From a virus (Duplodnaviria; Caudoviricetes): DNA of 59,836 nucleotides. Position numbers and translations under genes: made by a program. The notes beneath the pieces were generated by a model, which saw only the letters and a list, made by a program, of their open reading frames with translations, did not search any database and had not been told where the DNA came from. Positions 1,701 to 59,721 of the stretch are shown piece by piece (the first letter of the stretch is position 1; every line of letters starts with the position of its first letter). The stretch covers positions 1 through 59,836 of the IMG/VR virus record IMGVR_UViG_3300014838_000022; one strand, 5' to 3'.

Positions 1701-1707
1701 ATTAAAT

Positions 1708-2628: not shown

Positions 2629-2660
2629 TTTAATAAATATTAGAATCCATTTTGATTGAA

Positions 2661-4378: not shown

Positions 4379-4402
4379 AAGAGCGGCTTTTAAGCCGCTC
4401 TT
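4379..4402. terminator. Intrinsic terminator hairpin
   Basis: AAGAGCGGCTT-TT-AAGCCGCTCTT, with a T-run on the minus strand, downstream of the HD gene. Confidence 0.7.
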
Positions 4403-4445
4403 AGGGGCGTTTTGCCCTCCACCATTTGACGTTGCCGCCAAATTG

Positions 4446-4853: not shown

Positions 4854-6870
4854 CTTTGTGTAGTTTATACCAGTTTATAGTTTTTGTCAATCCTTCTTTC
4901 AAAGGAATTTGTGGACGCCAGTCCATATCAAATAAGCGAGACGTGTCTAGAATTCGCTTCGGAGTACCATCGGGCTTGGTTGTATCCCAAATTATTTCTC
5001 CCTTATACCCGATGATTTCAGCGATATTTCCCACAATATCTTTGATTGTGTAGTCCGTCCCATATCCAATGTTAATAATGCGTTCATCACTATATTTCTC
5101 CATTAAAAATATACAAGCATCCGCCATATCATCAACATAAAGAAACTCCCGCCGAGCATTCCCAGTCCCCCACACCGTGACAGTCGGAGCATCCTTTTCG
5201 GTTGCTTCGACAAAACGACGAATCAGTGCAGGGATTACGTGTGAGTAGGTAGGATGAAAATTATCATTCTCGCCGTAGAGATTGCACGGCATAACCGAAA
5301 TAAAATCACATCCATATTGTTTACGATACGCTTGACACATCTTTATACCCGCTATTTTTGCAATGGCATAGGCTTGATTGGTTGGTTCAAGCTCTCCCGT
5401 CAACAGTGACTCTTCTTTAACAGGGACTTCGGCATATTTTGGATATATGCAATTATGAACGGCAATTCCATTTGCAGTATAAGAATGATCGTTTTCTACG
5501 GATAAGTCATATACCATTTCCTCCGTATCAATATGATGAATATTTTTGACTTTTATTTCCAAAAAATCACCATTGAAAGTATGATTTATTCGAGGTTTAT
5601 ATGATGGATGAAATTCGTCTATGTTTTCATTCAATATTTCTATTATAAATTTTATTGCATCTAAACCTACTATTTTCACTTCCCATTGAGACCGTTGATT
5701 TACAATTCTATTTTCAATAACACATGTTGGAGATTTCTTTTTATAATAAATTGTAGAAAAAATTCGCAATTTCAGCAATAGCTGTTGAAGTTGATATATT
5801 AGCTCTTTTGATGTAGAGGATGCTGTGCAGAAATATTGATTGTTTTTTCGATCAGTTCTCATTTTCCAATGCCCATCCCCACGCCAATATCCTTTCAGAA
5901 ATTTGGAAATAATTTCATTGGAAGAATTCATCATAAATTGAGGAATAAATTTTGTATGTGCTTTATGAATTAAATCGTCATTATAAAATGATCTGAAAAA
6001 ATTACACATGTCCTCCCCATTTACACAGATTTGCCAAGACGTTCGTTTTTTATACGAATGTGGATTTATTCCGAACACAGTTGAAATTTTAGAACATATA
6101 TCATCTTTAAATACTTCGTCGTGTCCCGGATAAAAAAATATATTGTGATATGATCCCCGTTTTCCGGATGCGTTTTGTCTAAGACATCCTTCCGCTACAA
6201 AATATCCACTTAATTCTGCTAAATCAGTTGTTATTTTGCGTTGGGACATATTATCTACCATTTTCAATTCGTCCGCTAATGGAATTAAAATTAAATCTTC
6301 TTTAGTTATATCCTTTGCTGCCACAAATCCACGTTTTGTATAAATCAAATGTTCTGGAGTACATGATAATTTATTCCATCCTTTAAAACCAATGACAATA
6401 AGTTTTTTATTAAAAACATTTGTTGTTGTTTTATAAACCTTCTGAAATTTATGCTGATGAGTTAGGACATAATCTCCAATTTTTACATCCACAATGTCCG
6501 TTATTCCTCGTCGTGTTATTATCATGGTTCCCATTGGAAAACAAACGCTACCTAAAAAACACAATTTTTTCACATCATATTTTCTACACGCCTCGATAAT
6601 ATTTGTTTGAATGGCCAAATTATTATAAATGAATTCCGCTGGCATAACATTGTTGGCATGTATTCCTCCAACTTTAGCTGCTGCATCGAAGATATATTCC
6701 GGTTGAACGTTACCCATCATGACCTCGACATCATCCTGACAAGTTAAATCAGCGTCTTTTCGTGTGATCGGAGTTACATTGTCATATCCCATCACCTTTA
6801 AACGACGAATAAGAGAACTTCCTACCAGTCCATTAGCTCCAAATACTACGATTTTACTTTTAGGATTCAT
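4840..6870 (-). CDS. fcl: GDP-L-fucose synthase interrupted by an intein
   Basis: GANGLVG Rossmann motif, AAAKVGGIHAN, YAIAKIAG (YxxxK), PCNLYG, HVIPAL, WGTG.ARREF, KPDGTPKR. Confidence 0.93.
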   Translation of the reverse strand: MNPKSKIVVFGANGLVGSSLIRRLKVMGYDNVTPITRKDADLTCQDDVEVMMGNVQPEYIFDAAAKVGGIHANNVMPAEFIYNNLAIQTNIIEACRKYDVKKLCFLGSVCFPMGTMIITRRGITDIVDVKIGDYVLTHQHKFQKVYKTTTNVFNKKLIVIGFKGWNKLSCTPEHLIYTKRGFVAAKDITKEDLILIPLADELKMVDNMSQRKITTDLAELSGYFVAEGCLRQNASGKRGSYHNIFFYPGHDEVFKDDICSKISTVFGINPHSYKKRTSWQICVNGEDMCNFFRSFYNDDLIHKAHTKFIPQFMMNSSNEIISKFLKGYWRGDGHWKMRTDRKNNQYFCTASSTSKELIYQLQQLLLKLRIFSTIYYKKKSPTCVIENRIVNQRSQWEVKIVGLDAIKFIIEILNENIDEFHPSYKPRINHTFNGDFLEIKVKNIHHIDTEEMVYDLSVENDHSYTANGIAVHNCIYPKYAEVPVKEESLLTGELEPTNQAYAIAKIAGIKMCQAYRKQYGCDFISVMPCNLYGENDNFHPTYSHVIPALIRRFVEATEKDAPTVTVWGTGNARREFLYVDDMADACIFLMEKYSDERIINIGYGTDYTIKDIVGNIAEIIGYKGEIIWDTTKPDGTPKRILDTSRLFDMDWRPQIPLKEGLTKTINWYKLHKDETK
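5452..6543 (-). mobile_element. Intein with LAGLIDADG homing endonuclease (364 aa)
   Basis: Begins CFPMGT and ends VYDLSVENDHSYTANGIAVHN|C; internal LSGYFVAEG and FLKGYWRGDG motifs. Confidence 0.93.
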
Positions 6871-7022: not shown

Positions 7023-7397
7023 TCAATGAATGTAGATTTTTCGCTCACCGATGCCTAAACGGACAGTCTTCCGCAATCCTTGGGAAAATCCTTCACTTAA
7101 AAATGCACGGTCATCCACTAAACTAGGAGGAATCTCCCATCCAAATGAAATTTGAACGGAATCAGTTGGGAGATTGGGATAGCTATTACCTTTTTCACGC
7201 TGTTCAATATAATCCAAATCTTTTTTTCGTTGCTCATCAAGTCTTGCTTTTTCCGCTGCTTCCCATTGTTCTCGTTCAACTCGTTGTACTTTGACAACAT
7301 AATTGCACAAATCGTTTTCAGACATCCCTGCAAATTGTGGCAATTTTTTGAGTTGTGGAATATCCATATATTCCATATCGTTTCCATAGTAATTCAT
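7023..7397 (-). CDS. Hypothetical protein
   Basis: ORF coupled to the upstream ATP-grasp gene. Confidence 0.55.
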   Translation of the reverse strand: MNYYGNDMEYMDIPQLKKLPQFAGMSENDLCNYVVKVQRVEREQWEAAEKARLDEQRKKDLDYIEQREKGNSYPNLPTDSVQISFGWEIPPSLVDDRAFLSEGFSQGLRKTVRLGIGERKIYIH

Positions 7398-15142: not shown

Positions 15143-18100
15143 TTAGATTAACCACTTCCTCAAGTAATCTCTAAGACTTCCTTCTTGGATGTTGGGGGAA
15201 TATTTGTCCCACAAGAACTGCATGAGTTCCATCGCTGTATTGAAATAGTGAGGTCCATCCGTTTTAGTTGCCCAATATGATGCCTGTCCTCCTGCAAAGA
15301 AATAAACGTTATCATCACTCTTTTTTCTATAATATAAAACTCGGAATGCAATCCCCGCATTGGAATCGGTTTCCTTTTCAAACCCCATACTAGCAAGAGT
15401 CTCTTCATCTTTTGATACCAAGGAAATAGCTTCATTGTTGGGAGTATTCGGATATTCTTTATTAAAATAATCTCTGTAGTCTACTCCGCTATATGGAACT
15501 TTACTCAAATTCTCTGCCTTCGGATTTTCATTTGCATGTTTGGCTGAATAATTAAAATACCATTCCATTTGTGGTGAATTAGTATTTTTATCAGCACTAG
15601 CTAATGTCTTCTTCAAATAATATGCTTGTTTGTCTTGTGGAATCTTAACAAATTGCTCGTTAAGACCAATTGTCCACATAATTCCGTCAGTGAATAACTT
15701 TAGGGTAAATTTACTAGGATGCACCCACTTAGTTCCATAAACAAGCATCTCTGGATGGAACCCAACACTCTTGAGATTATTGACTACTTCTATATCCGGA
15801 TAATACATCCCGCCAGAAGTTTTATCACTATCTAATTTATTCGAATGAGTTTCAAGATATTGATGCGATTCTCCATTAAATAAATCGAAAACATCATTAT
15901 TACTTGAAGATTTGTCAACATCAGTCAGAGCCATCGTCAAAAAATGTCCTTGATGAGAGAGTGGAATCTCAAGTTCCGTGACTCCGTTTATACTATACCA
16001 CCGAATTCCCTTAGTGTGTAATTCAAAATTAAACTGGCTTGGATGCACCCATCTAATTACACCATTCGGCATAGTTTCTGAGGTAAATCCCGAAGTTGTG
16101 AGAAGTTTTACAACCAACTCTTTAGGATAATATGATTCACCCAATGGGTTTTCTTTTGGAGTTGGGTTTACTTTATTTTTCCACAACCATCTAAGGGTAT
16201 CTTCTACGGATGGAAAGATTTGGGTGACTCCTCCAGTATTAAAATTAGACCAATAATTTGATCCCCCGTGATTATAAAACGCTATTCTCCGATTATAATT
16301 TTGATACACAAGTCCACCTCCCCATTTTACAGGATTCCATCCCATAGATTTCATTGTAGTCTCATCAAATGGAGTAAGACTCAATGGAACTTTAGGAGGT
16401 TGTGTATTCCACATAATCTTATAATTCATCCCCGAGAATGGCATATTCTCGGTTCCTGCTAATACTGTTTTATTCTTATTGGATTCTGATTTTTTGGATA
16501 CCAAATATTGTATGGCGGATGAATAAGTATTGAATTTTTGGACCTCCGCTGTGGACGTACTAATTACACTTGCAGTTCCATCTTTAAGAAATACCACATC
16601 AAAATCTTTATTCGTATAAAAAACACTTCCATCGGGAGGTTGAACTTTTTGGAACCCCAATTTATTCTCGTTATCCGCAGAGAGTTCTACTGAATCTTCT
16701 GGGGCAAAACTTTGGAGTGGCGTTTCTGGCTCGGAAATCTCCGGTGAGGAATTTTGCAAATGATCCATTAATGACTCGTTATCAGTAAACGAAAAAGAAT
16801 TTTTACTTCCCTTCATTTTAACGGATGATGAATGGTCAGCAACATCATAATACAATACCGTTCCAGACTTATTTAGGAATTGAAGCAAATTTCCCTTTAC
16901 CATCATTAACTTAAATCCCTTAATATCAATTTCCTCATCCAACTCTACATCGCCCGTGCTATGAGTAAGTTTAGGAGATGCCTCCGTAGTTTCCAAATAA
17001 TTTACAAGGTCAGATACATTATTAAATTTATGTACGGGATTGTTATCAGGTGCCAAATATAAATTAGACGTTCCATCATGAAACAAATATAAAGTATCAC
17101 CATTAGAGTTTCTATACATGGTAGCTTCCTTAACCCCACCCATTGTAGTAATATTGATGGTAGTTTCAAATTTAAACCCATGTTTTTCTATTAATTCCGG
17201 AAGTTTGGCTTCGGGGACTTCTTTTACTTCTGGCGTAGGTTGATTGATAGACGAAGGTTCTTCTTTTGGCTTCGAATCTTTGTAAGACCATTTATTAACT
17301 ACATCCTCTATATTTTTTAGAAAATATGCGATGCCATTCATTCTAACATACTCTAAGAAATCATCGACATGCTCGATTATACGCTTCGCATTTCCCAAGG
17401 ATAAATTAATGTTATATGTACTATAAATGTAATTCTTAAGTGTTTTAATGGCTGCAATCTTATTGGATGAATTAATCGGGGTAGACATTGGAATGTCTCC
17501 ATCCAAATTCATAAACTGCTTAAGTACCCCATGCATGGTATTGTAGTCATCTTCAGAAACGGTTGGGTTCTCATCCGCCATTGCCCATTTCCCCACTACC
17601 TTATCTATGTCAATCAATGAATCGGGAAGACCATAATTTTTAACGTAATTCAAAAATATTTTCACATTTTCCACAATCCATTTTCCCTCTCCTAAAGACA
17701 ATTTCAACCCATACTGCTTCAACATCACATGCCGCAAATATACAACGGCTCCGACTTTGTTATTATGATATTGGGGTGATCCGGGAGGAGTCTTTTGGGA
17801 TGGAATATTACCCTTTTCATCCCTGAACGGCTTAAGTTCCTTGACTAAATTGTCATGGATGACTTGAAACTTTTGTTCATCGGGCGTAGCAACCTTGGTC
17901 AATGGAGGCACTGCCGAAACGGGGGGTTCAGGTGATTCCGTAGATGCCGACACAATGGCTGGTGGTTTAGGAGATACTACTTTTTTTTTTACAAACATCG
18001 CCATCTCGGGCAAACTGTTGAAGTGTTGAACTTCTCCCGTTTGACCATTCGTATAGGTAGATTTTGGATACGGCGAGATTTTAATGGTGTCATTGGTCTT

Positions 18101-21046
18101 GACGTTAACATAGTCGAATCCCATATGATCCCATACAAATCCAGCATCGTTCAATGTTTTTTCAAACATTGCCCCAGCCTTCATTCCGTCCTTCACAGGA
18201 GTAGATGGAGCAACCAATGGAGACACGGAAGCCCCTTGATACTTGGTTACTAACCACGATATTGCATCTGCAATCTTCTTGGTAACGGCGGAATGAGTGT
18301 TTCCCATTATAATAAGAATCTTGGCTACATCATTGGGGTAAAATTTGGCTACATCCCCAATTTTTTTATGCATATACCATACATCTGATCCTTGCATCTT
18401 AGGCTCAAATCCGACAGACTTCAATGCATTTTCATCTTCTTGTGTGAGACGAATCGTATGGGTTGGGGGTTTTGTAATACCAACGTGGGCTTTGTATGAT
18501 GCCTTTGATGGTGATGGCGGTGGCAATGGAGCATCGGATGACTGTGAAAAAATCTGAGGAGTCACCAAAGTTGAAACCGTGCTCTGGACTGGATTTTTTA
18601 TCTGAGTCAATGCCGCAAAGTTGTTGGCAACGAATGAATAAGTCTTATTCCAGTTCGAAAATGACCATTGTTCAGTCGGACTTCCTACAACCCCATGCTT
18701 AACAACATAGGTCTGTCCGGTCGGAGTCGTAGATTTTTTACCAACTGCTAAAGCAGTGCTTCCATTAACTAAGAACAACGTCATACCCGATCCCGCAGTA
18801 TTAGGTTCAACGGTGACTGTTCCTCCGGTCTGGTTGGCTAGAATCTGAAATGTATTTACTTCAACATTATTGAGCGAATATTCAGTCGATGGCTTGGTTC
18901 CAACCGATGGAGCCATCAATGGCTCTTTAAAGGGAACGCTGGAAACACCACCCATAGATTTACCAATCCATGCTTTACTTGCATCATAATCTTCGTTTGG
19001 AAGAGCATTCTCCGTGAAAGTTTTGCACAACAAAAATATAGAATCCCAAAAAGACTTATGATAAACCTCATTTGGATTAGACTTCTTACATACCATATAT
19101 GTCCCATTGGAAAACGCAAATAATTGAACTCGGTCGTCTCCGGGAAGATATGCCTTGTAATACTGAGTTGATGGTCTCCATCCCATTTTGCATTGCTCCA
19201 ACAATTGGGTTTCCTTAGCCGCATCCAATTTAATCTTGGTATGAGATTCCAGAATTTCATCTTTTTTAGATTTAACTTTTGGCTTTGAAAATGTAGACAC
19301 CCCCGGAATAGGCTTAATGAAATTAAATACATTCTGGGTTAGCCATTTTTCCAATTTTTCAGGGGTTTCGAATACCTGAATATCGGCATTCATCGAATCT
19401 TGAACCGAATACATTCCATTAGTATGGAACTTGGCAGTATATTGATTCTGAATGGTGATTCCCTTCTTATTTTCATAAGGAGCCTGTGTTTGCCATTCAT
19501 TTCCGACCGAAGATTTAACAAACTTGTTTGCCGTAAGCACCGCTTCCACTTCAGGCGGAAATGGTTTATCTGGGCTTTGAGTTACCTTATTAATATCCTG
19601 TTCAATATCAGGATTATCGCTCAAATATCCAAGCACCCGGACAATCAATCTCTTAATCAGTGGAGATACAAATGGAAGATACCGAGCAATGTGAGTTGTC
19701 TTGGCACGACGATCAAGATCAGAGGGGGAAACATACATTCCACCTTTATTCAAAAGTGCTCCCCCATTGTGTTCCAAATCATAGATATGGTCAATTACCG
19801 ATGCCATATCCTCAATGTTTCCTTCGTTGGTTTGAGCAGCCAATTTTATAAGTGAATCAGTTCCTTCTCCCCATTTAGGACCACCGAATGCAGAACCTCC
19901 CCATCCAATCTTGTTATAAGCAAGGGAAATATCATCCCATGTTACACCCGATTTGAGGATGGCTTGATTAATACCAATAATTATGTTGGGAGACATTTCA
20001 CGAAGTAGAATTTTACGATGGGTAATACTCTCGGAAATATTCTTATGAGTCTTGAGCCATTTCTGAATCTTATCTGTTTCAACATCCGTCGAAGCATGTT
20101 TCAAATCATCGTCACCCCAATCAGCACCCGGGGGAACTTCAACTGTAGGCATATTGTAATCAGTATCATCGGGTTCTTCCGGAGCACTTGCTTTTGGTTC
20201 TGGCTCTGGCTCTGACTGTGTTGGCTCTGGTTCTAGCTCGGAATTTCCTACTTTAGGATTTTCCTGATCTTTCGATACAAAATCAAATGGATCGGGATTC
20301 ATTCCAGCATAATACTTACAAAACTTTAACAGACGTAAAACAGCATCTTCATGACCAACCATCTTAGGAATATACATATTGATATTGGCATTAAATTCCT
20401 CTTTGGAAACTTTACCTTGTTGATTGTGTAACCCAACCAATCTATGACGAAACGTTATCCAGTCGGGGGAATAATTAAGAATATATCGAAATTCCTGCAT
20501 GATGCTCAAACGCAAATGCGCCGAGATTTTTCTGGAAAGTTGAATAGTAACTTCATCGAACACTTGGTCAATAACTTTACGAAGTTGGGCGGGAACAATT
20601 GTACCACCCATTGGAGGAAATTCAACATCTTCCCACCCCGCTACACCAGCCGCCAAAGGATCAACACCACGTTCGATGGCTGCTCGATATTGTTTTGCTT
20701 GCGATGGAGTAAGTACTCGGGCTTTAGTTGGGTCTGATTGATGACCGGGAGCTATCGATGGATCGGGGCGGGGACTGCCCAATTGTCTATGCATAAGTTC
20801 CATTGCATAGAAATCATAAAACAGTTTGGTGGCATTGGCTCTAGTCGATGAGTCTTGCGCCCCACTTTTAGTGACATTTATGAACGGGGCATGATAATGA
20901 ACCCCTTCTTGAATGATTCTCAACTGTTCTTTTAGTGAAATAGCCATATATACAGGAATAAATATACGATAACGTGACCATTCTCGTAATAAAGATACAC
21001 GGTGGAGATAAGTGAAAACAAAATTATGACTTTCATTTATCTCCAC
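15143..21046 (-). CDS. Giant (~1.9 kaa) hypothetical protein with repeated domains; true start probably MAISLKEQ (~20947)
   Basis: Uninterrupted ORF, acidic/Pro linkers, recurring GF...(Y/W)...F..G...F...L..(Y/W)L units. Confidence 0.8.
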   Translation of the reverse strand: MEINESHNFVFTYLHRVSLLREWSRYRIFIPVYMAISLKEQLRIIQEGVHYHAPFINVTKSGAQDSSTRANATKLFYDFYAMELMHRQLGSPRPDPSIAPGHQSDPTKARVLTPSQAKQYRAAIERGVDPLAAGVAGWEDVEFPPMGGTIVPAQLRKVIDQVFDEVTIQLSRKISAHLRLSIMQEFRYILNYSPDWITFRHRLVGLHNQQGKVSKEEFNANINMYIPKMVGHEDAVLRLLKFCKYYAGMNPDPFDFVSKDQENPKVGNSELEPEPTQSEPEPEPKASAPEEPDDTDYNMPTVEVPPGADWGDDDLKHASTDVETDKIQKWLKTHKNISESITHRKILLREMSPNIIIGINQAILKSGVTWDDISLAYNKIGWGGSAFGGPKWGEGTDSLIKLAAQTNEGNIEDMASVIDHIYDLEHNGGALLNKGGMYVSPSDLDRRAKTTHIARYLPFVSPLIKRLIVRVLGYLSDNPDIEQDINKVTQSPDKPFPPEVEAVLTANKFVKSSVGNEWQTQAPYENKKGITIQNQYTAKFHTNGMYSVQDSMNADIQVFETPEKLEKWLTQNVFNFIKPIPGVSTFSKPKVKSKKDEILESHTKIKLDAAKETQLLEQCKMGWRPSTQYYKAYLPGDDRVQLFAFSNGTYMVCKKSNPNEVYHKSFWDSIFLLCKTFTENALPNEDYDASKAWIGKSMGGVSSVPFKEPLMAPSVGTKPSTEYSLNNVEVNTFQILANQTGGTVTVEPNTAGSGMTLFLVNGSTALAVGKKSTTPTGQTYVVKHGVVGSPTEQWSFSNWNKTYSFVANNFAALTQIKNPVQSTVSTLVTPQIFSQSSDAPLPPPSPSKASYKAHVGITKPPTHTIRLTQEDENALKSVGFEPKMQGSDVWYMHKKIGDVAKFYPNDVAKILIIMGNTHSAVTKKIADAISWLVTKYQGASVSPLVAPSTPVKDGMKAGAMFEKTLNDAGFVWDHMGFDYVNVKTNDTIKISPYPKSTYTNGQTGEVQHFNSLPEMAMFVKKKVVSPKPPAIVSASTESPEPPVSAVPPLTKVATPDEQKFQVIHDNLVKELKPFRDEKGNIPSQKTPPGSPQYHNNKVGAVVYLRHVMLKQYGLKLSLGEGKWIVENVKIFLNYVKNYGLPDSLIDIDKVVGKWAMADENPTVSEDDYNTMHGVLKQFMNLDGDIPMSTPINSSNKIAAIKTLKNYIYSTYNINLSLGNAKRIIEHVDDFLEYVRMNGIAYFLKNIEDVVNKWSYKDSKPKEEPSSINQPTPEVKEVPEAKLPELIEKHGFKFETTINITTMGGVKEATMYRNSNGDTLYLFHDGTSNLYLAPDNNPVHKFNNVSDLVNYLETTEASPKLTHSTGDVELDEEIDIKGFKLMMVKGNLLQFLNKSGTVLYYDVADHSSSVKMKGSKNSFSFTDNESLMDHLQNSSPEISEPETPLQSFAPEDSVELSADNENKLGFQKVQPPDGSVFYTNKDFDVVFLKDGTASVISTSTAEVQKFNTYSSAIQYLVSKKSESNKNKTVLAGTENMPFSGMNYKIMWNTQPPKVPLSLTPFDETTMKSMGWNPVKWGGGLVYQNYNRRIAFYNHGGSNYWSNFNTGGVTQIFPSVEDTLRWLWKNKVNPTPKENPLGESYYPKELVVKLLTTSGFTSETMPNGVIRWVHPSQFNFELHTKGIRWYSINGVTELEIPLSHQGHFLTMALTDVDKSSSNNDVFDLFNGESHQYLETHSNKLDSDKTSGGMYYPDIEVVNNLKSVGFHPEMLVYGTKWVHPSKFTLKLFTDGIMWTIGLNEQFVKIPQDKQAYYLKKTLASADKNTNSPQMEWYFNYSAKHANENPKAENLSKVPYSGVDYRDYFNKEYPNTPNNEAISLVSKDEETLASMGFEKETDSNAGIAFRVLYYRKKSDDNVYFFAGGQASYWATKTDGPHYFNTAMELMQFLWDKYSPNIQEGSLRDYLRKWLI

Positions 21047-21758: not shown

Positions 21759-21805
21759 CATTACCCATTCGCAACCATCGTGGAGGTAGTGATTACACTG
21801 CGAAC

Positions 21806-22207
21806 TGGACATGCGGAGAATCGAACTCCGGTCTCTAATATATTCAATGAATAACACTACACGCTTAGTTTGTATATGAATTATGCTGATTATTAACAAA
21901 CAATTTACTCAGTATAGACATACTTAACAAGTATGTCAGTTGCCTCTATGATAGAACCATAGAAAGTTCCCTCGCTTATTAACGCAACAGAATTTTTAGC
22001 GAGTATTATATTCTGCTTACCGAATTAAGCCAATGCTAACTCTTCGGAAACCACTTCTTCATTTCCCAAAGGAAACTCGAAGTTGATAGCGGACAATTCG
22101 TTTAAACGATTATCGGTTATATTTCAGTCGTTTTTTTACAGAGCCGATGACCAAACTCTGGCGTGCATTCCTCATTTCCAATCTTAGATCGAAACCAGGT
22201 CATGCCC
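21806..22207 (-). ncRNA. ssrA: tmRNA; tag peptide DNRLNELSAINFEFPLGNEEVVSEELALA*
   Basis: 5' GGGCATG pairs with 3' CATGTCC-A (G3-U70); GGTTTCGA after the 5' stem; T arm CCGGAGTTCGATTCTCCG; tag ORF 22114-22025 ending LALA. Confidence 0.92.
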
Positions 22208-40144: not shown

Positions 40145-40965
40145 ACCATTATTATAACACGTTGTTTCAATCTGTCAACTGATAAAGATCATATTTCTTT
40201 GTGATCCCATCCCAATTCGCTATCAACCATTCCTTCAATTGGTTATACTGTTCCCGATCCCCAAAACCTTCAACTGCTTTCGCCAAGGTTACATTCTTCC
40301 ACCCGCAGCATTCATTAGCATCCTTGACGATCAATGTCACCCGCATCCCATCCTTCTTCCCTTCGGCTCCCATATAATTTTTCCATCCAATATACCCAAC
40401 GACTTTCGTGTCAACCTTGATGTCAACATAGATATGATCGAAAGACCGATACTTCCCCATCGGCTGATTGATTTTAAATGTGAGTCCCATAAATTTATTC
40501 AAGAAGAAAAATGGTGGTATCCGTCGAGATTCCCAATTGAGTCATAATGTTTTCGGACAAACAACGATGTGCCGCACAAACATCGGATGGACCTTCCGAC
40601 CACAACCTATATTGATTCCAATCGGCTATTCCTTTACCAATCAATGTTCCTGACCGATAATCATAAATAGATGCCATGCCATTGTCTGTAAAAGTGGATT
40701 CCGTAGTTAATCGTTTCATATCAACACAGTCGCACATCTGTATACTTTGTCAAATGATTTTCCTGTACTTATTATCTTTTATTCTTTATCGAGTGGCTTG
40801 GTGCTGCCGAGCGGCAGCGAGCAACCAAGCCTAGATAATTAATACTTCCTGAATATAGTACAGGAAAATGCTTTCCTTGTCAAGATATAATAACAATGTA
40901 TTAAGTACCGGATAATTAGTTTTTACATGTTTTGAAAACATCAACAAAATTCATTCGGCATATAT

Positions 40966-41219
40966 GTAGTGTAGTTTGAAGGAATATAATTAATAATACA
41001 CTACAGGTAGTAGGTATACCATTAGTAGTGTAGTTTGAAGGAATATAATTAATAATACACTACAGGTAGTATAACAATAGGTTGGTGTATCAATTATATA
41101 CACACATCCTGTAGTGTATATACCTTCTGTAGTGGTATGTCATCAATGGACTATACCTTATATGGTGTTATACTATTACGAGGGTATGATATATTTACAC
41201 TACACTACAGGATGTGTGT
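40966..41219. repeat. 47-bp direct repeat pair (40966-41012, 41025-41071) plus 19-bp perfect inverted repeat (41100-41118/41201-41219)
   Basis: Shared core TACACTACAGG in an AT-rich non-coding stretch. Confidence 0.85.
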
Positions 41220-41354
41220 CTAAATACTGGATATTATATGTTTGGGTCCGAAGTATCAACGTCGCAGACCCGGAGCCTGGTACAGGGAAATACTGGATAT
41301 TACATACTCGCCCGGGCGCATTAAATTGGTTCGGTGAAACGATGTGATTATAAT

Positions 41355-41416
41355 AAAAAAGAGCGGTTGAAAATAATAATTGGGGACTGAATCCCAAGAA
41401 CTAAAATCAACCGCTC
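41355..41416 (-). terminator. Long hairpin terminator closing the solitary-repeat-1 transcript
   Basis: GAGCGGTTGA...TCAACCGCTC followed by a T-run on the minus strand. Confidence 0.6.
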
Positions 41417-41602
41417 ATCAGACTTTAGACTCTAACTACTAATACACTCATTGCCTTTATCTCACGTTTACTTCTGTCACTGCGTTCCTTTCGGAATTGA
41501 ATGGCGTGGCTCTCCATTCATGATATACCTTCAATGAGTTTTTAATCCCCACTTAACCCTTGCAAACTTCCATTGCGGGAACCAAATTCTAATTGTGAGT
41601 CT

Positions 41603-41635
41603 GTTTCAATCCGCACCCCGGTCTCACGGGGTGAC
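41603..41635 (-). CRISPR. Solitary type I-C-like CRISPR repeat 1: GTCACCCCGTGAGACCGGGGTGCGGATTGAAAC
   Basis: 7-bp stem CACCCCG/CGGGGTG and 11-nt tail CGGATTGAAAC; promoter TTGATA-N17-TATAGT directly upstream. Confidence 0.8.
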
Positions 41636-41853
41636 ATAAATACTATAACATACTCTACCAAACTTATCAAATTTTATTTTGTGAGTCTCACCCTGAATAC
41701 ACATAACCCTTGAGACTCACAAAATCTATCTGTTGGACTAATTGTGCATGGCAACACAGTCAGAGGCTCTACTGCATGATCCTGCTAGTAACTTGCTGTA
41801 TTACGGGTCTGATCTATTACGTATTCAATCAGCATAGTCCAACAAAAATAAAA

Positions 41854-42045
41854 TTACTGTCCAAACAATGCCGATGTCTGGTCACCACTATAACGCACCT
41901 TCCCTTGGCTGTCAAGTGTCTTTTTGGTATTTCCATCATACCGTCCAATCGTCGCACCCGAGGCATCTTGAGCAATCACTTGGGAACCAGTATGCAACTT
42001 GTATCCCTTCGTGCGACCACTACCGTCTTTGATTGTTTCTCTCAT
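41854..42045 (-). CDS. Small hypothetical protein between the two solitary repeats
   Basis: ORF with its own TTGACA promoter. Confidence 0.55.
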   Translation of the reverse strand: MRETIKDGSGRTKGYKLHTGSQVIAQDASGATIGRYDGNTKKTLDSQGKVRYSGDQTSALFGQ

Positions 42046-42365
42046 GCTAAGAACATACCACAAATACTTGCGGTGTCAAATTTTATTTTATAACACCGTG
42101 AGCGTAATCTCAGTGCCCGATTCGAGCGGAAACAATACCCTCTCACATATGGGCGCTATATTCGTCCAAGCCTGAACCGCAATTCCTCTATCTGGTCCAG
42201 TGACCAGAAACAAATCAAAGATTGAATTTTTTGCCCAGTATGGATAATTACGTTGTTTAATCTCTTCTTTAGGCAACGTTATTTTCACCTTGGCATTTAC
42301 GCACATGTAGTTTTGGTCATTCATACGGTTATTCTAACACACTATTGGGACTTGTCAAATAAAAT

Positions 42366-42526
42366 TGGTGCCATCGGCTGGACTTCCACCAGCAAACGGG
42401 AGTCACCCCATTATTTTTCCATCCTTGAGTTTAACTGGAATCTAGCGACACTAGATTTGCTTTATCTTTCGAACCATTAAACTGTTAGGACGAAGTAACG
42501 TTGTATCTAGCACGTTACGCTATGGC
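42366..42526 (-). ncRNA. tRNA-like RNA (~161 nt) with a large structured insert
   Basis: Acceptor GCCATAG/CGATGGC-A-CCA and T-like arm GCTGG-TGGAAGT-CCAGC enclose several hairpins. Confidence 0.6.
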
Positions 42527-42580
42527 ATAAAATTTGGTATTAAGAGGATTTCACGTAAGAACCATTTAAGGTTAATTCGT

Positions 42581-42653
42581 TCCAATAAAAAGGGGGTGAA
42601 CCTTTACCTCCCCTCGTTCAAGAGGGGCGTGCTACCAGTTACACCATATCGTC
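42581..42653 (-). ncRNA. Degenerate tRNA-like element
   Basis: D arm TGGTGTAACTGGTAGCAC, stem CCCCTC-TTGAAC-GAGGGG, T arm AAAGG-TTCACCC-CCTTT; poor acceptor stem and no CCA. Confidence 0.5.
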
Positions 42654-42911
42654 GTTTGTCTCTTGCGGAACCACCCAAAGAGAGCTACTCCCTGGAAACC
42701 GCTTTGTTTGGCCTTACAAATTAAAATTAGTGTGCCAGTCACGGCATCTTCGTGCAATGAAACTTGGTGACTAGCCTATTTCATTATTAACCGATTCGCC
42801 CTTTATCCTTGGCATCTTACAATCACACGCAATACTGTATGCGGCAAGTTCGGCGACAAGACTAATCAAAAATTAAAGGTAGCAATTCAGTCTAATCCCA
42901 TTACATTGTAA

Positions 42912-42943
42912 GTTTCAATCCGCACCCGGTCTCACGGGGTGAC
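42912..42943 (-). CRISPR. Solitary type I-C-like CRISPR repeat 2: GTCACCCCGTGAGACCGGGTGCGGATTGAAAC
   Basis: One G shorter than repeat 1; promoter TTGACA-N16-TATAGT directly upstream. Confidence 0.8.
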
Positions 42944-43211
42944 ATAAATACTATAACACACTCCCCAAACTTGTCAAATTTTATTTTGTGTCCATTTCCC
43001 CCGAGGGTTAGGATAATACAGTGTTCCTGTCGCAATATTCATGATCCCCCCTGCCCCCCCCGGGAGTTCCCTTGGGGGAAAGGAAAATACTTCGTGGCCG
43101 CTATAAAGTGTTTTCTTACAAGGGGGTGCACTCTCCCCCCACCCCCAGGTCTCTCTATTCCAGTGCATAGGAACCCCATCATCCCCATCGGGGCCAAGTA
43201 TGATAAATGTT

Positions 43212-44078
43212 TTATTTGACATATTCAATGGTCTTGAATTTATTGGAGAGTTTCAATGGGGCGGGGTGCATCGTAATCTTTCCCGCTTTCGTGTTGATTG
43301 TTACCACAGCGGGCACGGTGACAGTTTTCTTTCCCTTGCCGTGATGAAAGTAATCAGCCTTGTAACCACCCTTCCCCTGTTTGCGTAATTTATATACAGC
43401 CTTCCCCGCAGCACTCCCGGCGGGCATTGTCCCGTGAATCAACAAACAAAAATCCTTGTCCCCCTTCCACAACAAAGAATCATCATGGTCTATTTCAAGC
43501 CCCAATTGCTTGGCTTCATCCTCTGAAAATACCACCTTGGCAAAACGCAATCCCATCATGTCAATCAAATCGTCAAACTTTCCTCCACGGGATGCCACCA
43601 ATTTTAAATTGGAAGGAATAACATTAAGCCGTTTTACCCAAAGCGGTAACATCTTGGAATAACCATAGAAAATCCAGTCCGGATGTTGCTGTGCTACCAT
43701 AATCCAAGCATCAAAATAGGCTTGATTGAAGAAATCCCCGCTCCCATGTATGCGGATACGTTTAACGTTTTTCTTGGTAAGCAAACTGGATTCAATCAAG
43801 TTAGCCATCCCAATTGCCGTATTGGCTTGTTTCAACAAGTCAAAATTGTTCCACCGTGACTCCCGTACAGTCTTGAACAAATTCTCCGGTAGTGTGGCAA
43901 AACACCGAAATTCTGTATTCGGGCCATCTGTTATTTTTCCAGTTTCTCTGTTAACACTTGAACGACAAAGGTTTGCCCCTAAACAAGTGTGTCCGGCGGG
44001 CAAAGAGAGGATAAACGTATCTCCGTCAAGTTTAGCGTTTCCTTTAGCAAATGATAATGTTTTATTTGTGTCAGTCAT
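43212..44078 (-). CDS. Gp88-like protein (radical-SAM-related phage family)
   Basis: GNAKL...LSLPAGHTCLGA..C...CFA...RIHGSGDFF...FYGYSK. Confidence 0.75.
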   Translation of the reverse strand: MTDTNKTLSFAKGNAKLDGDTFILSLPAGHTCLGANLCRSSVNRETGKITDGPNTEFRCFATLPENLFKTVRESRWNNFDLLKQANTAIGMANLIESSLLTKKNVKRIRIHGSGDFFNQAYFDAWIMVAQQHPDWIFYGYSKMLPLWVKRLNVIPSNLKLVASRGGKFDDLIDMMGLRFAKVVFSEDEAKQLGLEIDHDDSLLWKGDKDFCLLIHGTMPAGSAAGKAVYKLRKQGKGGYKADYFHHGKGKKTVTVPAVVTINTKAGKITMHPAPLKLSNKFKTIEYVK

Positions 44079-54444: not shown

Positions 54445-56775
54445 CTATCTTAAATTCATCATTATTTTTCCAATTCCAGATTCGTCATCATAGTCCTCAT
54501 TCCACACATAATATTCTTTCTCATCAGTTGTGGTTATTATTTTTAAGTCTATTAACGCTTCAATTCGTTCAATCTTGGTGAACCACAGTTGAATGGAATT
54601 TCTTACAATTGCATTATAGGGAACTTTCTCTCCTGCTATAATCTTCTTTACCAAATCTTTATCAATAATTACAGTAGCAGTAGCATTGTCAATAACCTTA
54701 AAATTATTATTAATCTCTTCAAATTGTCGATCATCTTCCATCATTAAAAGTTTACTCCCCCTACCCTTAGATATGATACTTAACTCCATTCTAACTAATT
54801 CGGTGCAATACGATGGAGTGAGGTTATCGAATAGTGTACTATTAAAGACTTGAATGCCTGAGAGTAACTGTGGATTAGCAGTGAACATATGATTTATTCC
54901 AACTAAGCTTGGAGACCAATGATAAATATATACTGTAGCGTCCGTCGAAATGCTACCACGATTAATTCTTCCCATGAATTGAAATAGATTAAGTGGGCCA
55001 CATTTCTCTCGCCATCCCACATCAAATGATATATCAACCCCACACTCAATGGTTGAAGTAGCTAATACCAAGACCTTCTTGGATTTATCTTTAAGTGATG
55101 TTTTTATATTCTCAAGTATCTTCTCTTTATGTGTAGGAGTCTGATACCCCGTTAGTTCGTATATTATCCATTTATCCAATCCATCATACCTACGTAAGAT
55201 ACTTGCTAATACTGAAGCATTGTTAATAGTATTACAAACAACCAATCCACTATGCTTAATGGACATTTTGTCGAGAATATGATTGATGAAGGAATCTAGG
55301 TTCATAGCATCTTTAATTATGTCAATCTTTACTCGTTTGTGTTCGAGGTCTTGGAACATTTTATAGGTAGACTTAGCAATGATGTCATGAACTTCTATCT
55401 CGGATTCGTCGAATATATTCCAATAATATGCCGATGTTCCTGAGCTAAAAATGAAAGAGCAATTAAAATTTATAGATAAGTCTTTGAGTAAAGGAAGGAT
55501 ATACTGCCAGTATTCATGTGGCATACTCTTGTCAAATTCATCGAAAAAGAACACCGAGTTGGCGAACCAATGAAGTTTTCTACAGCGACCGGGGCGATTG
55601 TTGGCTAATGATTCGAAGAATTGAACTGCGGTTGATACATTAATGGGAGCATTCCATTTGTTGGAATGTTTTCGCATCCACAACTTTTCAAACTCACATT
55701 TACTGTGAATTTCATTGACGTTGTTTTCATTTTCTCCGTCCATCAATATTGACTTGCGATACTCATCAACGGTTTGACTTATAATGTTGGTGAAGGGAAT
55801 GATATTATAAATTCTGTCAGCATTTCTCTGTGCTGCCAATCGTAACATATAGGTTAATCCACTGAATGTCTTTCCTAATCCTACCGAGCCATCTAATGGG
55901 AAGAATGCGACATCATTGGGTATAGGTTCATTGAGACATGTTGATCGCAACTGTTGGCGGCTTTTCAATCGTTCGGGCGACACATCTGATGGCTTAAGAC
56001 GGTCAATGTGAAGGTTAAGTTTCTTTAATCGTTCGAGGGGAACCAGTTTAGTAAATTCAAAGGGATCGTATTTTTGATTATAAAATCTATCAGTATCAGT
56101 ATGATCTGCGTCCACTAAGCAAGAAAAAGCAATTCTTATTTGCAATGCCGATAACGGTATTTTACGACTAATATTAGTTCTCGGGACATATACAATACTA
56201 ACAACCGAGTCATGAATATTCTCATACTCATCAATATGAGCATTGATGTAGTCCATCACCGATTTCTCCGGACACTTAATCTTATATGTCTCTAAGATGT
56301 CTCGGTTATCCCTAAACAATCTATTATTGATTTTGTAATAGTAATTTGTTCTAATAGGATTGGATTTGTCTATGCATTCTTGAGCCATTGGATTTTGATT
56401 CTTAAGACCAAGATGGTGGGCATGAACCAGGAAGGCAGCTACAAGATAAGAAAGATTTTCGGTTTGTTCATACTTTTTAATTAGAATAGCAACACCAGCG
56501 TCCACATGATTGAGCATCTTGGCATCTTGATTGTCATCATTATCACCATTCAAGATGACTTGAGCCGATGCATCTAACTTCCCAATGTCATGATAAAGCG
56601 CAGCTAAGGCCACTACATCCATCAAGAAAGCGACCTTAGAAGGACTGAGGTTGGTCTTCCGCAATGCATCCGTAATAAAAGTGCGTCCGTCGTTATATAC
56701 ATTAGTAATGTGTTCACAATAGGTCTGCGTGATCATTACACCACGTTTTTTGTCAGATGAGTGTGCCGCTATCAT
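54445..56775 (-). CDS. cas3: Cas3-like HD nuclease-SF2 helicase
   Basis: AHS, H..., YHDIGK, NHVDAG, HHLGL and FSCLVDADHTDT (HD domain); GLGKT, IPFTNIISQT, DEFD, SGT, TIECGVDISF and QFMGRINR (helicase). Confidence 0.88.
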   Translation of the reverse strand: MIAAHSSDKKRGVMITQTYCEHITNVYNDGRTFITDALRKTNLSPSKVAFLMDVVALAALYHDIGKLDASAQVILNGDNDDNQDAKMLNHVDAGVAILIKKYEQTENLSYLVAAFLVHAHHLGLKNQNPMAQECIDKSNPIRTNYYYKINNRLFRDNRDILETYKIKCPEKSVMDYINAHIDEYENIHDSVVSIVYVPRTNISRKIPLSALQIRIAFSCLVDADHTDTDRFYNQKYDPFEFTKLVPLERLKKLNLHIDRLKPSDVSPERLKSRQQLRSTCLNEPIPNDVAFFPLDGSVGLGKTFSGLTYMLRLAAQRNADRIYNIIPFTNIISQTVDEYRKSILMDGENENNVNEIHSKCEFEKLWMRKHSNKWNAPINVSTAVQFFESLANNRPGRCRKLHWFANSVFFFDEFDKSMPHEYWQYILPLLKDLSINFNCSFIFSSGTSAYYWNIFDESEIEVHDIIAKSTYKMFQDLEHKRVKIDIIKDAMNLDSFINHILDKMSIKHSGLVVCNTINNASVLASILRRYDGLDKWIIYELTGYQTPTHKEKILENIKTSLKDKSKKVLVLATSTIECGVDISFDVGWREKCGPLNLFQFMGRINRGSISTDATVYIYHWSPSLVGINHMFTANPQLLSGIQVFNSTLFDNLTPSYCTELVRMELSIISKGRGSKLLMMEDDRQFEEINNNFKVIDNATATVIIDKDLVKKIIAGEKVPYNAIVRNSIQLWFTKIERIEALIDLKIITTTDEKEYYVWNEDYDDESGIGKIMMNLR

Positions 56776-56910: not shown

Positions 56911-59721
56911 ATGACTAAACCATCCACAGCAGATATTCCACCACAAGACGTAAAATCAACCAAAACCACGACTCTCAAAGTCATAGGTAATGATGTTAAA
57001 CTTAGATTGTTCAGCTTATTTGATCCATTTACACTTATTTGTTCTGACATCAAGGATAAAATATATCAATTGAAGGATGACGAGTCAACAGTAAAAATCT
57101 ACAACGATTATGTGGATGAGGGTAAGCGAGGAAGGGCTGCTGCAACCACAGTATTCACCAAAATCAAAGAGAAAAAAACCCCATACGTGAAGAATTCGTT
57201 CACAGGAAAATATAAATCAAATCCTATATTTCCTATCTATAAATGTCCTAAGAAAGGATTAAACTTTGCCACGGCTGGATGGCATTACACCAGTAATGCC
57301 GCTATTCACACTCAACTAGATTCATTGAATAAATGTGATAAAATTTGTAATGACGAGTTCAATAAGTTAAAGAAAGAGGTTGAAGACTACGATGAAACTC
57401 TTCATGAAGACTACGATGAACAATTGGTGGCAGATTTCTATGAATTCATTCAAGACACTATGTTATCGGGATGGAGTTTTGATGGGAACTTTCAAAAGTT
57501 CTTTGTCCAAGTAATGTTGCCGGGTCTTAAGAATGGAACTATCATCACCAAAGGCACCTATCGGCTTGGTGATAAAAAGAAAAGGTATTCTTTCTATACC
57601 CCCAAGTTGGCCGAATCCATTGCATCCAATTCTAAGTTTTGGGACTTGATGGCAAATGACACTACAGTTAGTTACTTCAACGCTAATCATTTACTCCAAC
57701 AGAAAAAAGAACATGCTGCCTATTCTAAGACAACCTTGGTTAAGGCTCAAGTTCGTCCCGTGTTCGCAAACAATGGCGTTAAGTTTTCTATTTCGTGTGA
57801 TGGCAGAATGGCCTATATGGCATTCAAGCTTCCTGCTGTCGATGGGAATCCTTCAGAATTGCTAAATGTTCCATGTGCCTATCAAAAATTTTACTTTGGT
57901 GGCGATAAGGCTGGGACTCCCCGTAACAGTTATTTGTCGGGATTAACCATTGAAGATAACAAAGATGGCACATATATTTGCCATTACTCGGTTAACAACA
58001 AACGTCCCCAAACCGCCCAGTTAAACGAGTGCTTTTTAAGAATGGTGGTTAAGAATAAAAATTGGGTCCAAAAATATTTGGATGGCACATTGACCAAAAA
58101 GGATGGTCCTATCAACGCCAGCTATTTCGAGTTCTATTTCGATTTATGCATGGGAGTAGTCGAAGCCCCTATTCATGATCTTACCAACAATGAAGTCTTC
58201 AAGAAAGGAGGCATTCGGGGAGGCATTCGGGCGTTTCATAGTTCTGCTTATCCCGAACGCAAAGACTTCGATAATCAATCAAGCATTCCAGTTCAGTTCC
58301 GTTGTGTTGTAGATAAGCCGTATAGACTCATGGGAGTTGATTTGGGTCAACGAAATCCGTTTGCATATTGCATCAAGAATAATGATGGCAGTGTCGTAGC
58401 CTCGGGACATATGGTTGGGGCTTCCAACGATAACTATAAAAAATATATCGAGTTCGGGAATGAGTGTGAGTATATAATTCAACTCATTAAAGAAACCAAG
58501 AACTATCTGTATGGAGACGACGATGCTATTGATGCAGATAACTATGCACGAGTGAAATCTACGTTACCCTTTAAATCCTATTTGTTGTATCTTACATCTA
58601 AACGTGGATTGGTTAATGTAGAGGATCAATCCAAAGGGCAGACGCATCTGCTACGAGCAGATGATGGATGGATGATAAAGGATTTGGTATATAAACAAAC
58701 AAAACAATATCATATTCTAAATGACGGACGTTATACTGACAATGATTGGAGGCAGACTCTTTATTGGGCGGATGCTATATCTCGGTTCATAGACCTTCAG
58801 AAAACATATAATAATTTCGGGTCTTATTACGATCATGCGAAGAAGACTAAAGTCAATGGAACGGGAAAAGGATTTTGCTCTACTTACTATGACCACATCA
58901 ATAATTTGAATAAGGATACATTTAAGAAATTTTGTTTTGAACTCTTGCCTATTATCAAGAAATACGGGGTATCATTGGTATGTGTTGAGAAATTGACTTC
59001 TATGTATGGTGACAAACTGAGGTCTGCGGATGATAATCGCATGTATAATATGTGGCCGGTTGGTCAACTCAAAACTTTCCTCAAAGGTGTGTTGGCACCA
59101 TATAAAGTAGGCGTAATTCAAGTTTCAGAGCAAGATACGTCTCAAATCGTCGATGGTAAATGGGCATATCGCCCCAAAGATGGAAATGCCGCTAATAATC
59201 TTTATTATTTAGATGTGGCTAACAAGATTCAATCGGTTCATTCTGATGAACAGGCAGCATTTAATATTGTGGACCGGGCTTTAACCAACCATACTAATTT
59301 ATATAGTTTATACATGGTAAATGTATTAGATAGCTATTGGGTGCCGAATCAAACATGGAATCCCAAAGAAATCGGTGGCAAGCTAAGTCGTGGGTTTCTT
59401 ACTAAATTGTATGGTACATCCAATGTGGTATTCATAAAACAATATAATAAGCTTATCAGGACAACCATTGGAATTAAAGAACTCAAAAAAATGGTTGGTA
59501 AGAGCAAGCCACTAGGCAAGGGCTATATGTATAGAGTGAATGAGACCGAATGGATTGACGGAGAATCTAAACAAAAATTGGTTGACTCTATTTGCGAGAG
59601 GCTAGGTGATACATCATCCATGCTCACCTCCTCGCAAGTCACAACTTCCACAAAATCAGTAGTTTGTGTAGAGATTGGACCCCCCAATAAGAATTCAACC
59701 GTGAAATCTTGTGAGGGTTGA
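56911..59721 (+). CDS. cas12: Type V CRISPR effector-like RuvC nuclease (Cas12b-like), 936 aa
   Basis: RuvC-I RLMGVDLGQRNP, RuvC-II LVCVEKL followed by RSADDNRMYNMW and TSQ, RuvC-III VHSDEQAAFNI; all three acidic residues present. Confidence 0.85.
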   Translation: MTKPSTADIPPQDVKSTKTTTLKVIGNDVKLRLFSLFDPFTLICSDIKDKIYQLKDDESTVKIYNDYVDEGKRGRAAATTVFTKIKEKKTPYVKNSFTGKYKSNPIFPIYKCPKKGLNFATAGWHYTSNAAIHTQLDSLNKCDKICNDEFNKLKKEVEDYDETLHEDYDEQLVADFYEFIQDTMLSGWSFDGNFQKFFVQVMLPGLKNGTIITKGTYRLGDKKKRYSFYTPKLAESIASNSKFWDLMANDTTVSYFNANHLLQQKKEHAAYSKTTLVKAQVRPVFANNGVKFSISCDGRMAYMAFKLPAVDGNPSELLNVPCAYQKFYFGGDKAGTPRNSYLSGLTIEDNKDGTYICHYSVNNKRPQTAQLNECFLRMVVKNKNWVQKYLDGTLTKKDGPINASYFEFYFDLCMGVVEAPIHDLTNNEVFKKGGIRGGIRAFHSSAYPERKDFDNQSSIPVQFRCVVDKPYRLMGVDLGQRNPFAYCIKNNDGSVVASGHMVGASNDNYKKYIEFGNECEYIIQLIKETKNYLYGDDDAIDADNYARVKSTLPFKSYLLYLTSKRGLVNVEDQSKGQTHLLRADDGWMIKDLVYKQTKQYHILNDGRYTDNDWRQTLYWADAISRFIDLQKTYNNFGSYYDHAKKTKVNGTGKGFCSTYYDHINNLNKDTFKKFCFELLPIIKKYGVSLVCVEKLTSMYGDKLRSADDNRMYNMWPVGQLKTFLKGVLAPYKVGVIQVSEQDTSQIVDGKWAYRPKDGNAANNLYYLDVANKIQSVHSDEQAAFNIVDRALTNHTNLYSLYMVNVLDSYWVPNQTWNPKEIGGKLSRGFLTKLYGTSNVVFIKQYNKLIRTTIGIKELKKMVGKSKPLGKGYMYRVNETEWIDGESKQKLVDSICERLGDTSSMLTSSQVTTSTKSVVCVEIGPPNKNSTVKSCEG

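Follow-up and report, generated by a model that had tools for sequence, protein, structure and literature searches.

Why would a phage carry, twice and outside any CRISPR array, a promoter joined directly to a single CRISPR repeat? The question is raised by the IMG/VR virus record IMGVR_UViG_3300014838_000022, the whole 59,836 bases of which were analysed (hereafter, the window; G+C approximately 40%). Since its completeness is estimated by CheckV at 17%, the window is a fragment of a large phage. A unit of approximately 80 nucleotides (nt) is present on the minus strand at 41603–41683 and again at 42912–42990, 1,308 nt apart, and begins in each case with an UP-like A/T tract, which is followed by the -35 box, by an extended -10 box and, after a further 6 nt, by a repeat of 32–33 nt. 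On the best explanation, the units are small genes whose non-coding RNAs would imitate the repeat of a type I-C CRISPR system. The parts of the two units are listed below, with coordinates in plus-strand numbering and the minus strand as the functional strand.

41603–41635, minus strand: solitary repeat 1, 33 nt (5' overhang, 2 nt; stem, 7 bp; loop, 6 nt; tail, 11 nt, CGGATTGAAAC).
41636–41683, minus strand: promoter of unit 1, with an A/T tract, a -35 box TTGATA (41670–41665), a 17-nt spacer, a TG-extended -10 box TATAGT (41647–41642) and 6 nt (ATTTAT) leading to the repeat; 10/12 in the promoter scan.
42912–42943, minus strand: solitary repeat 2, 32 nt, the stem of which lacks one G in its 3' arm.
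42944–42990, minus strand: promoter of unit 2, with an A/T tract, a -35 box TTGACA (42977–42972), a 16-nt spacer, a TG-extended -10 box TATAGT (42955–42950) and 6 nt leading to the repeat; 11/12 in the promoter scan.

In the repeat RNA, the stem CACCCCG/CGGGGUG is preceded by a 5' GU overhang and followed by the 11-nt tail CGGAUUGAAAC. The alignment of the two units runs from CACAAAATAAAATTTGA to the final GAAAC with five differences, one of which is the G missing from the 3' arm of the unit 2 stem, and the flanks are unrelated on either side. The likeness is not due to chance, as the 32-mer was matched in none of 100 shuffles and the 14-mer tail occurs at just these two sites in the whole record. 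The fold of copy 1 contains the 7-bp stem at -13.5 kcal/mol, and 2 of 200 shuffled sequences fold equally well.

The promoters belong to a family within the window. The motif AAATAAAATTTGACAAG, allowing up to three mismatches, has 12 matches against 0.97 expected, and 11 of these lie on the minus strand at 30–46 kb; unit 2 contains an exact match and unit 1 is also a member. It follows from this clustering that the units sit within a block of small, separately promoted genes. With the usual distance of 7 nt from the -10 box to the start, transcription would be expected to begin at the first G of the repeat or within 1–2 bases of it.

Judged by its sequence, the repeat is a type I-C-like CRISPR repeat. 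In the passages of PMC8524198 on which we draw, I-C repeats cut by Cas5c have overhangs of 2 and 11 nt, a 7-nt stem and a 5-nt loop. Over its 32–33 nt, the phage repeat reproduces the canonical anatomy: 2 nt overhang at the 5' end, the GC-rich stem has 7 nt and encloses a short loop, and the 3' overhang comprises 11 nt and finishes with GGAUUGAAAC. It departs from this anatomy in lying outside any array, in a loop of 6 rather than 5 nt and, for copy 2, in a stem that is one base short. The first tail base is C in the phage repeat, as against the U22-G23-G24 named for the B. halodurans enzyme in the same passages; C is also found at this position in 18 bacterial repeats, though the pattern by which these were selected fixes that base.

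Those repeats come from a scan of bacterial genomes, one per species, with the phage head and tail (GTCRCCC, a gap of 4–12 nt and the 16-nt tail). The scan returned 21 genome stretches, 12 of them with at least three copies of GGATTGAAAC, and the repeats of the bacterial arrays have a head and 16-nt tail identical to those of the phage units. The single array locus in which cas genes were checked (L027) adjoins cas2, cas1c, cas4, csd2 (cas7), csd1 (cas8c) and cas5c, with the effector genes all above the NCBIfam cut-offs. Unit 1 and the repeat of another locus (L025) are identical at 27 of 33 positions, and the differences are confined to the inner stem and loop. A covariance model of 18 distinct bacterial repeats, themselves picked with the phage-derived pattern, was run on the whole window with filters off and gave 42.6 bits for unit 2 (E 5e-10) and 39.6 bits for unit 1 (E 4e-9).

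Both repeats are solitary, since the covariance model matches these two sites only: nothing better than 12.9 bits (E 0.26) occurs elsewhere in the window, and the 250 nt downstream of each copy contain no match at E ≤ 10. When aligned locally with the 160 nt that follow each copy, the repeat scored at chance level (65 and 533 of 1,000 shuffles, respectively, reached the observed score), and no CRISPR array was found anywhere in the window. Two degenerate second repeats seen by eye, GTGGGGATTAAAAAC after unit 1 and GTCGCC...GATTGTAAG after unit 2, were rejected as chance resemblances on the strength of shuffled alignments and the covariance model. Each unit is a single repeat on a viral record, intergenic, with no convincing open reading frame (ORF) overlapping it and no partial repeat nearby, and so has the form of a solitary viral repeat unit. 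Viral CRISPR mini-arrays, as set out in the cited part of PMC11656645, are likewise pared-down viral CRISPR elements dependent on Cas proteins of the host, as the phage units would be; they have at least two repeats around a spacer matching related viruses, whereas the phage units have one repeat, with no second repeat and no such match.

The original prediction had described an ~80-bp sigma70-promoter cassette, with a repeat about 6 nt after the -10 box, in two copies 1.3 kb apart, each followed by a different unique sequence and by no second repeat, and had assigned the repeat to type I-C from its GTC start, 7-bp stem and 11-nt tail. The arrangement is borne out by the coordinates, promoter scans and alignment, the solitary state by the alignment and covariance model, and the type by the anatomy given in PMC8524198, the bacterial arrays and the I-C operon at L027.

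Comparable units were observed elsewhere. Among 19 matches to the tail in other viral contigs, seven have a CRCCC arm within 25 nt upstream, and one of these seven lies within an array. An IMG/VR contig with 36% G+C (L019) has TTGACA, 16 nt and TAAGAT, followed by a 28-nt solitary I-C-type repeat with the same tail as the phage units; by eye, this repeat stands approximately 25 nt before a sequence resembling a ribosome-binding site. Three Verrucomicrobiota genome records (L034, L036 and L038) contain a solitary I-C-type repeat with the same tail, followed by 20–30 nt and a hairpin with a T run (by eye), and in L036 the stem is the same as that of the phage unit. These three look like small genes of bacterial or prophage DNA for RNAs resembling CRISPR RNAs (crRNAs) or the published RNA anti-CRISPRs (Racrs).

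Unit 1 is a discrete insert, bounded by a short direct repeat:

41593–41602, no strand assigned: left copy of the 10-nt direct repeat TTGTGAGTCT, flanking unit 1.
41679–41688, no strand assigned: right copy, flanking unit 1 and lying within the 3' arm of a hairpin at which the upstream transcript ends.

The hairpin in question is a perfect one of 15 bp (41676–41690 / 41711–41725). In a contig of an RNA library (X16), position 41592 is joined to 41679, with exactly 86 nt skipped and 10 letters common at the joint; the strain in this library therefore has an empty site. It is slightly diverged, with two substitutions and one deletion in the adjoining 100 nt, and its sequence departs from that of the window exactly at 42980. 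In a DNA contig from another sample (X3, 41329–41823), unit 1 is intact and identical. Copy 1 is accordingly a 76-nt promoter-plus-repeat insert that some strains have and others lack, and 10 nt are duplicated at its flanks. Ancestrally, a U-rich tract likely came after the hairpin, and it would be into this site that the 76-nt segment was copied. Duplication of the unit explains why the 21 nt immediately after repeat 1 are similar to the unit's beginning (a score reached by 3 of 1,000 shuffles). Homology of the two units extends 5 nt into the 10-mer, which would fit microhomology-mediated copying better than transposition. For a DNA contig (X2) in which 42924 is joined to 41617, with 34 letters common at the joint, a rearrangement was rejected in favour of an assembly path through the repeated unit. 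As a strain-variable 76-nt insert, the promoter–repeat unit suggests that such units spread in phage genomes as ready-made genes.

Each repeat is followed on the minus strand by a sequence found once:

41380–41602, minus strand: unique sequence after repeat 1, approximately 220 nt to a terminator-like hairpin (41397–41380), with no convincing ORF.
42722–42911, minus strand: unique sequence after repeat 2, approximately 180 nt to a terminator-like hairpin (42746–42733) and T run, with no convincing ORF.

Neither of the RNAs following the repeats matches an Rfam family, and their folding is unremarkable. RNA evidence is available as contigs, from which starts, strands and levels are not readable and in which DNA carry-over is possible; the region of unit 2 is present in the libraries of two studies. 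One contig (library X15, 42722–42871) starts 41 nt after repeat 2 and ends just past the terminator-like hairpin, and another (X16, 42603–42980) extends over unit 2 to a point 37 nt upstream of the predicted start. In X15 neither repeat is covered, nor is the RNA after unit 1; gaps between contigs prove nothing here, as small RNAs are lost in such libraries. Two X15 contigs are closed cycles (their length is L+30, and the 30 letters at the start are repeated at the end), at 41676–41847 (172 nt, depth 87) and 42722–42871 (150 nt, depth 24), and both end at hairpins. These may represent circular RNA, tandem cDNA or an artefact of intramolecular ligation, three origins that contigs do not separate.

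Targets were sought for the first 40–45 nt after each repeat, in databases other than those of plasmids and host genomes. Matches in isolate phages by blastn were at chance level (E ≥ 3); strict pattern scans of IMG/VR, with every sixth base free, returned none; and a scan of the window was no better than with shuffled spacers, the sole seed match of at least 10 nt tied to the units being the flank duplication of unit 1. A blastn-short comparison of the window with all loci collected also gave no spacer match. The check proposed at the outset, a search for protospacers matching the sequence after each repeat, thus found no target in isolate phages, IMG/VR or the window.

With moderate confidence, we read the two as promoter-driven solitary repeat units of the published Racr kind that act on the type I-C system of the host. 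Viral solitary repeats are an already described class with a validated I-C example, to which this phage adds two more candidates: in the parts of the reports cited, 2,103 units behind promoters are counted on viral sequences (PMC10651486; reviewed in PMC11656645), and RacrIC1 restored phage infectivity against a I-C system (PMC10651486). Decoys of this kind and single guides, the two uses that the original prediction had put forward, are both published readings of such units (PMC10651486). A strong sigma70 promoter of the phage's own family would start transcription at or near the first base of the repeat, and the RNA would open with the I-C hairpin and 11-nt tail. Cas5c is described as recognising the site of cleavage and the nucleotides downstream of it and as remaining on the 5' handle, at the tail of Cascade (PMC8524198, in part). 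Because Cas5c stays downstream of the cut, a single repeat would be enough to give the RNA that follows a genuine handle for Cas5c, Cas7 and Cas8c. The enzyme would thus stay on the 11-nt handle, now joined to approximately 200 nt of phage sequence in place of a spacer; Cas7 and Cas8c would assemble on the unit RNA; and Cascade subunits of the host would be tied up in complexes devoid of an antiviral spacer, which is the published Racr mechanism applied to type I-C. We infer each of these elements, from transcription start through cleavage and Cas binding to inhibition, and the host I-C system with them. The lack of a target is compatible with a decoy, since a decoy needs none.

In common with RacrIC1 and the other Racrs (Camara-Wilpert et al. 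2023, PMC10651486, in the sections cited), each unit has one viral I-C-type repeat, intergenic, directly behind a predicted promoter, with no second repeat and away from a Cascade operon. The phage units differ in number, with two copies of a discrete promoter-plus-repeat element flanked by a 10-nt duplication, in being known from sequence alone in a phage with no host assigned, and in that the phage itself carries an I-C-type Cas3 and a Cas12j-like gene, listed here for context:

54445–56775, minus strand: Cas3 HD-helicase, with matches to Pfam HD, ResIII, Helicase_C and Cas3-like_C_2 and to NCBIfam cas3_core and cas3_HD.
56911–59721, plus strand: Cas12j/Cas12X-like protein of 936 aa, divergent from cas3, with matches to PDB entries 8wru, 8xcc and 8zqb.

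By PADLOC, the best model for the phage Cas3 is Cas3c, of type I-C (E 3e-98, versus 5e-68 for the best Cas3b model). In those parts of the Racr and Cracr literature on which we draw, no mention is made of a promoter fused exactly to the repeat, of a copy-and-paste unit polymorphic among strains or of co-residence with a conserved Cas3c–Cas12j-like pair, though supplementary lists may already include this record.

Several observations weigh against the decoy. The stem of copy 2 is weakened by the missing G, so that its fold reaches -8.0 kcal/mol and 59 of 200 shuffled sequences fold as well. The X16 contig over unit 2 represents read-through RNA or DNA, because it extends upstream of the predicted start. 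Scores of the covariance model are biased toward the phage repeat by the choice of its repeats with a phage-derived pattern, and the independent match in Rfam, whose DR families represent only part of CRISPR repeat diversity, is weak: CRISPR-DR9 matches both units on the minus strand and at full length, with 21.5 bits for unit 2 and 21.0 for unit 1 against a gathering score of 45. A main support for the published Racr candidates is a match to the repeat and subtype of the host, and no host is assigned to this phage. An RNA of approximately 180–220 nt before the terminator-like hairpin is beyond the need of a bare decoy. RacrIC1 sits 11 nt after a homologue of AcrIC5 (PMC10651486, in part), whereas no known anti-CRISPR (acr) gene was recognised near the phage units, and the two small ORFs between them belong to no family:

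42088–42324, minus strand: ORF of 78 aa between the units, with its own promoter (-35 at 42358) and no family; its sole homologue is itself.
41854–42063, minus strand: ORF of 69 aa between the units, with its own promoter (-35 at 42079) and no family.

Searches of Pfam, NCBIfam, PHROGs and PADLOC returned nothing for the neighbouring small proteins. Above all, an I-C-type Cas3 in the same phage fits a productive use of I-C RNA at least as well as jamming, and it is mainly because I-C-type repeats and an I-C-type Cas3 share one phage that the decoy is not rated higher. Equally, both could have been taken from an I-C host.

The alternative that survives best is that the units encode single-repeat guide-like RNAs, which would reprogram the host I-C Cascade by directing it, with the handle and the following 35–40 nt, to a target. 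The outcome could be regulatory (Cracr-like silencing of cas or toxin promoters) or destructive, through cutting by the phage's own I-C-type Cas3, for which Cas3c is the best model. As Cas5c is on the 5' handle after the cut (PMC8524198, in part), one repeat could seed a complex on the sequence that follows, and the downstream sequences of the two units do differ. The X15 contig of the unit 2 transcript, starting 41 nt after the repeat, would leave an upstream piece of 11 + 40 nt, but this 5' end at 42871 is read from a contig rather than from reads. The nearest published parallel is Cracr (Liu et al., bioRxiv 10.1101/2024.10.29.618823, in the portions cited), in which a repeat-like sequence in a phage is likewise followed by a spacer-like one; I-C Cracrs are predicted there, and a V-A element has the form of one repeat-like and one spacer-like sequence with a terminator. 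That class is defined by at least nine PAM-proximal (protospacer-adjacent motif) matches of the spacer part to host CreA/CreR or to a cas or toxin promoter, and the spacer-like parts of its type I members match known CreA/CreR. Neither downstream sequence here has a target among the isolate phages, strict IMG/VR patterns, window and collected loci (host genomes lay outside these searches). The I-C examples of Cracr are moreover two-spacer arrays, in contrast to the single-repeat phage units, which have no terminator within 20–40 nt. The phage Cas3, too, is tied to a Cas12-like gene. We consider guide-like RNAs unlikely on balance. For type I-C, retention of Cas5c on the handle blurs the line between decoy and guide, and the two phage RNAs would allow a direct test.

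Could the units instead serve CRISPR machinery of the phage's own, either the Cas12j-like protein paired with Cas3c or a variant I-C Cascade encoded in the unseen 83% of the genome? The window contains cas3c and a cas12-like gene with no array, and the units are its only CRISPR-like repeats. Residues 647–815 of the Cas12-like protein (the RuvC region) match the structures of Cas12j19 and Cas12X (8wru, 8xcc and 8zqb) with E 3e-9, and there is a weak match to TnpB. All of 12 homologues (43–63% identity) keep D477 and E693, and conservation of D779 among them is at least 90%; on our own reading, these three would form the RuvC triad. Four metagenomic loci encode relatives of this protein (L043–L046). 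Cas3 adjoins cas12 in both of the loci that keep the flank, L043 (57% identity; 863–6014) and L044 (50%; 996–6425). The phage Cas3, which the original prediction had called an orphan, is therefore not one, as it adjoins the Cas12j-like gene here and in these two related loci. An I-C-type Cas3 is thereby locked to a Cas12j-like gene in the same phage, with the pairing conserved in related metagenomic loci, and no description of such a Cas3c–Cas12j-like (Cas12–Cas3) module was found in the literature searched.

A type V crRNA needs one repeat upstream of its spacer, as is textbook background (a V-A example is in the cited part of 10.1101/2024.10.29.618823), and huge phages with a variant I-C system plus a Cas12j system are on record (PMC7162821, in part). 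Behind cas12, an array is likewise missing from the closest relative that has a flank (L046, 65% identity), and the L043 locus has a solitary repeat right after that gene. However, in three of the four related loci (L043, L044 and L045) cas12 adjoins an array whose 36-nt repeat shows no relation to the I-C-type units, and global alignment of the units to the repeats of these three arrays, a comparison that leaves out the closer homologues P0002–P0004 (55–63% identity), gave scores of -5 to +1, against +21 and 27/33 identities for the I-C repeat. By eye, the Cas12-type tails GCCGTTGACAC and GCTATTGACAC are loosely like the I-C tail. The solitary repeat of L043 is of the Cas12 type and not I-C, and GGATTGAAAC occurs in none of the four related loci, so that the cognate repeat of this Cas12 family would appear not to be I-C-like. 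The earlier suggestion of the units as guides for the Cas12-like protein is consequently disfavoured, since homologous cas12 genes go with an unrelated repeat. The units and cas genes are also separated by 11–15 kb, with the units inside a block of small early-type genes. The window contains no Cas12-type repeat (the best candidate, with 21 of 36 matches, equals shuffled controls) and no match to cas5c, csd2 or csd1 hidden Markov models, a weak negative in that the csd1 control matched no control genome, and one confined to the window rather than the related loci; both absences say little, because 83% of the genome is unseen. Service to the phage's own machinery is, on this evidence, quite unlikely.

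In the L043 locus itself, which has only four ORFs of at least 100 aa, the solitary copy of the 36-nt repeat (6027–6062) directly follows the cas12 stop codon. The next 138 nt (6063–6200) form the 5' end of a gene and are found again, with 86% identity, at 7148–7285, a shift of 1,085 nt; the repeat finishes at its 3' end with TTGACA, which is placed like a -35 box for that gene.

A broader proposal, which we regard as very unlikely, is that the phage arms I-C machinery: the units would be mobile single-repeat guide genes whose RNAs, after cleavage by Cas5c, would load a Cascade of the host or of the unseen part of the phage genome and act together with the phage's I-C-type Cas3 on the chromosome or defence loci of the host or on competing phages; in a bolder variant, the conserved Cas3c–Cas12j-like pair would be a hybrid effector using these RNAs. 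Least probable of all is that the units are without CRISPR-related function, being a decaying remnant of a host array or a hairpin that merely stabilises the 5' ends of two unrelated small RNAs or gives them structure: the weakened stem of copy 2, the dispensability of copy 1 in at least one strain and the lack of a family or unusual folding in either downstream RNA would agree with this, but the junction of promoter and repeat falls exactly at base 1 in both copies, the I-C head, the stem and the 11-nt tail are retained in full, and duplication took promoter and repeat together.

No isolate phage matched 40–46 kb of the window by megablast, and IMG/VR yielded no relative through the GP88-like protein or the Cas12-like protein (single query and alignment) and no match to a 19-mer of the phage repeat. 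An Atlas search with the phage Cas3 returned generic Cas3 clusters of mixed phyla, which point to no particular host. Near-identical DNA (at least half of sampled words) is present in 13 public runs labelled as peat or permafrost metagenomes, one of which is possibly the source. Contigs as long as 106 kb (X2) and 89 kb (X3) occur in the DNA runs that include this stretch.

Further features were observed around the units. Just downstream of unit 1, a non-coding stretch contains two perfect 47-nt copies, 59 nt apart (40966–41071), and several inverted repeats with a common TACACTACAGG are found at 40750–41400; together these may be protein-binding sites or an origin. Downstream of unit 2, a tRNA-like element (42588–42647, minus strand) precedes a T run and scores 29.4 bits against a gathering score of 29; it covers model positions 7–64 only, has no ARAGORN call and has no acceptor stem that could be paired by eye. 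Between the GP88-like gene and unit 2 is a G/C-rich stretch (42974–43228, minus strand) with an ORF of 84 aa that overlaps the unit 2 promoter.

Elsewhere in the window, an ORF of 1,967 aa at 15143–21046 (minus strand) is without a Pfam family, and an intein with a LAGLIDADG domain interrupts an NAD-dependent sugar epimerase/dehydratase at 4840–6870 (minus strand). A cluster of 5–6 transfer RNA genes is located at 853–1781, including one tRNA-Ile(TAT) call of 93 nt, and a transfer-messenger RNA gene at 21803–22207 (83 bits) has a predicted tag that is unusually long.

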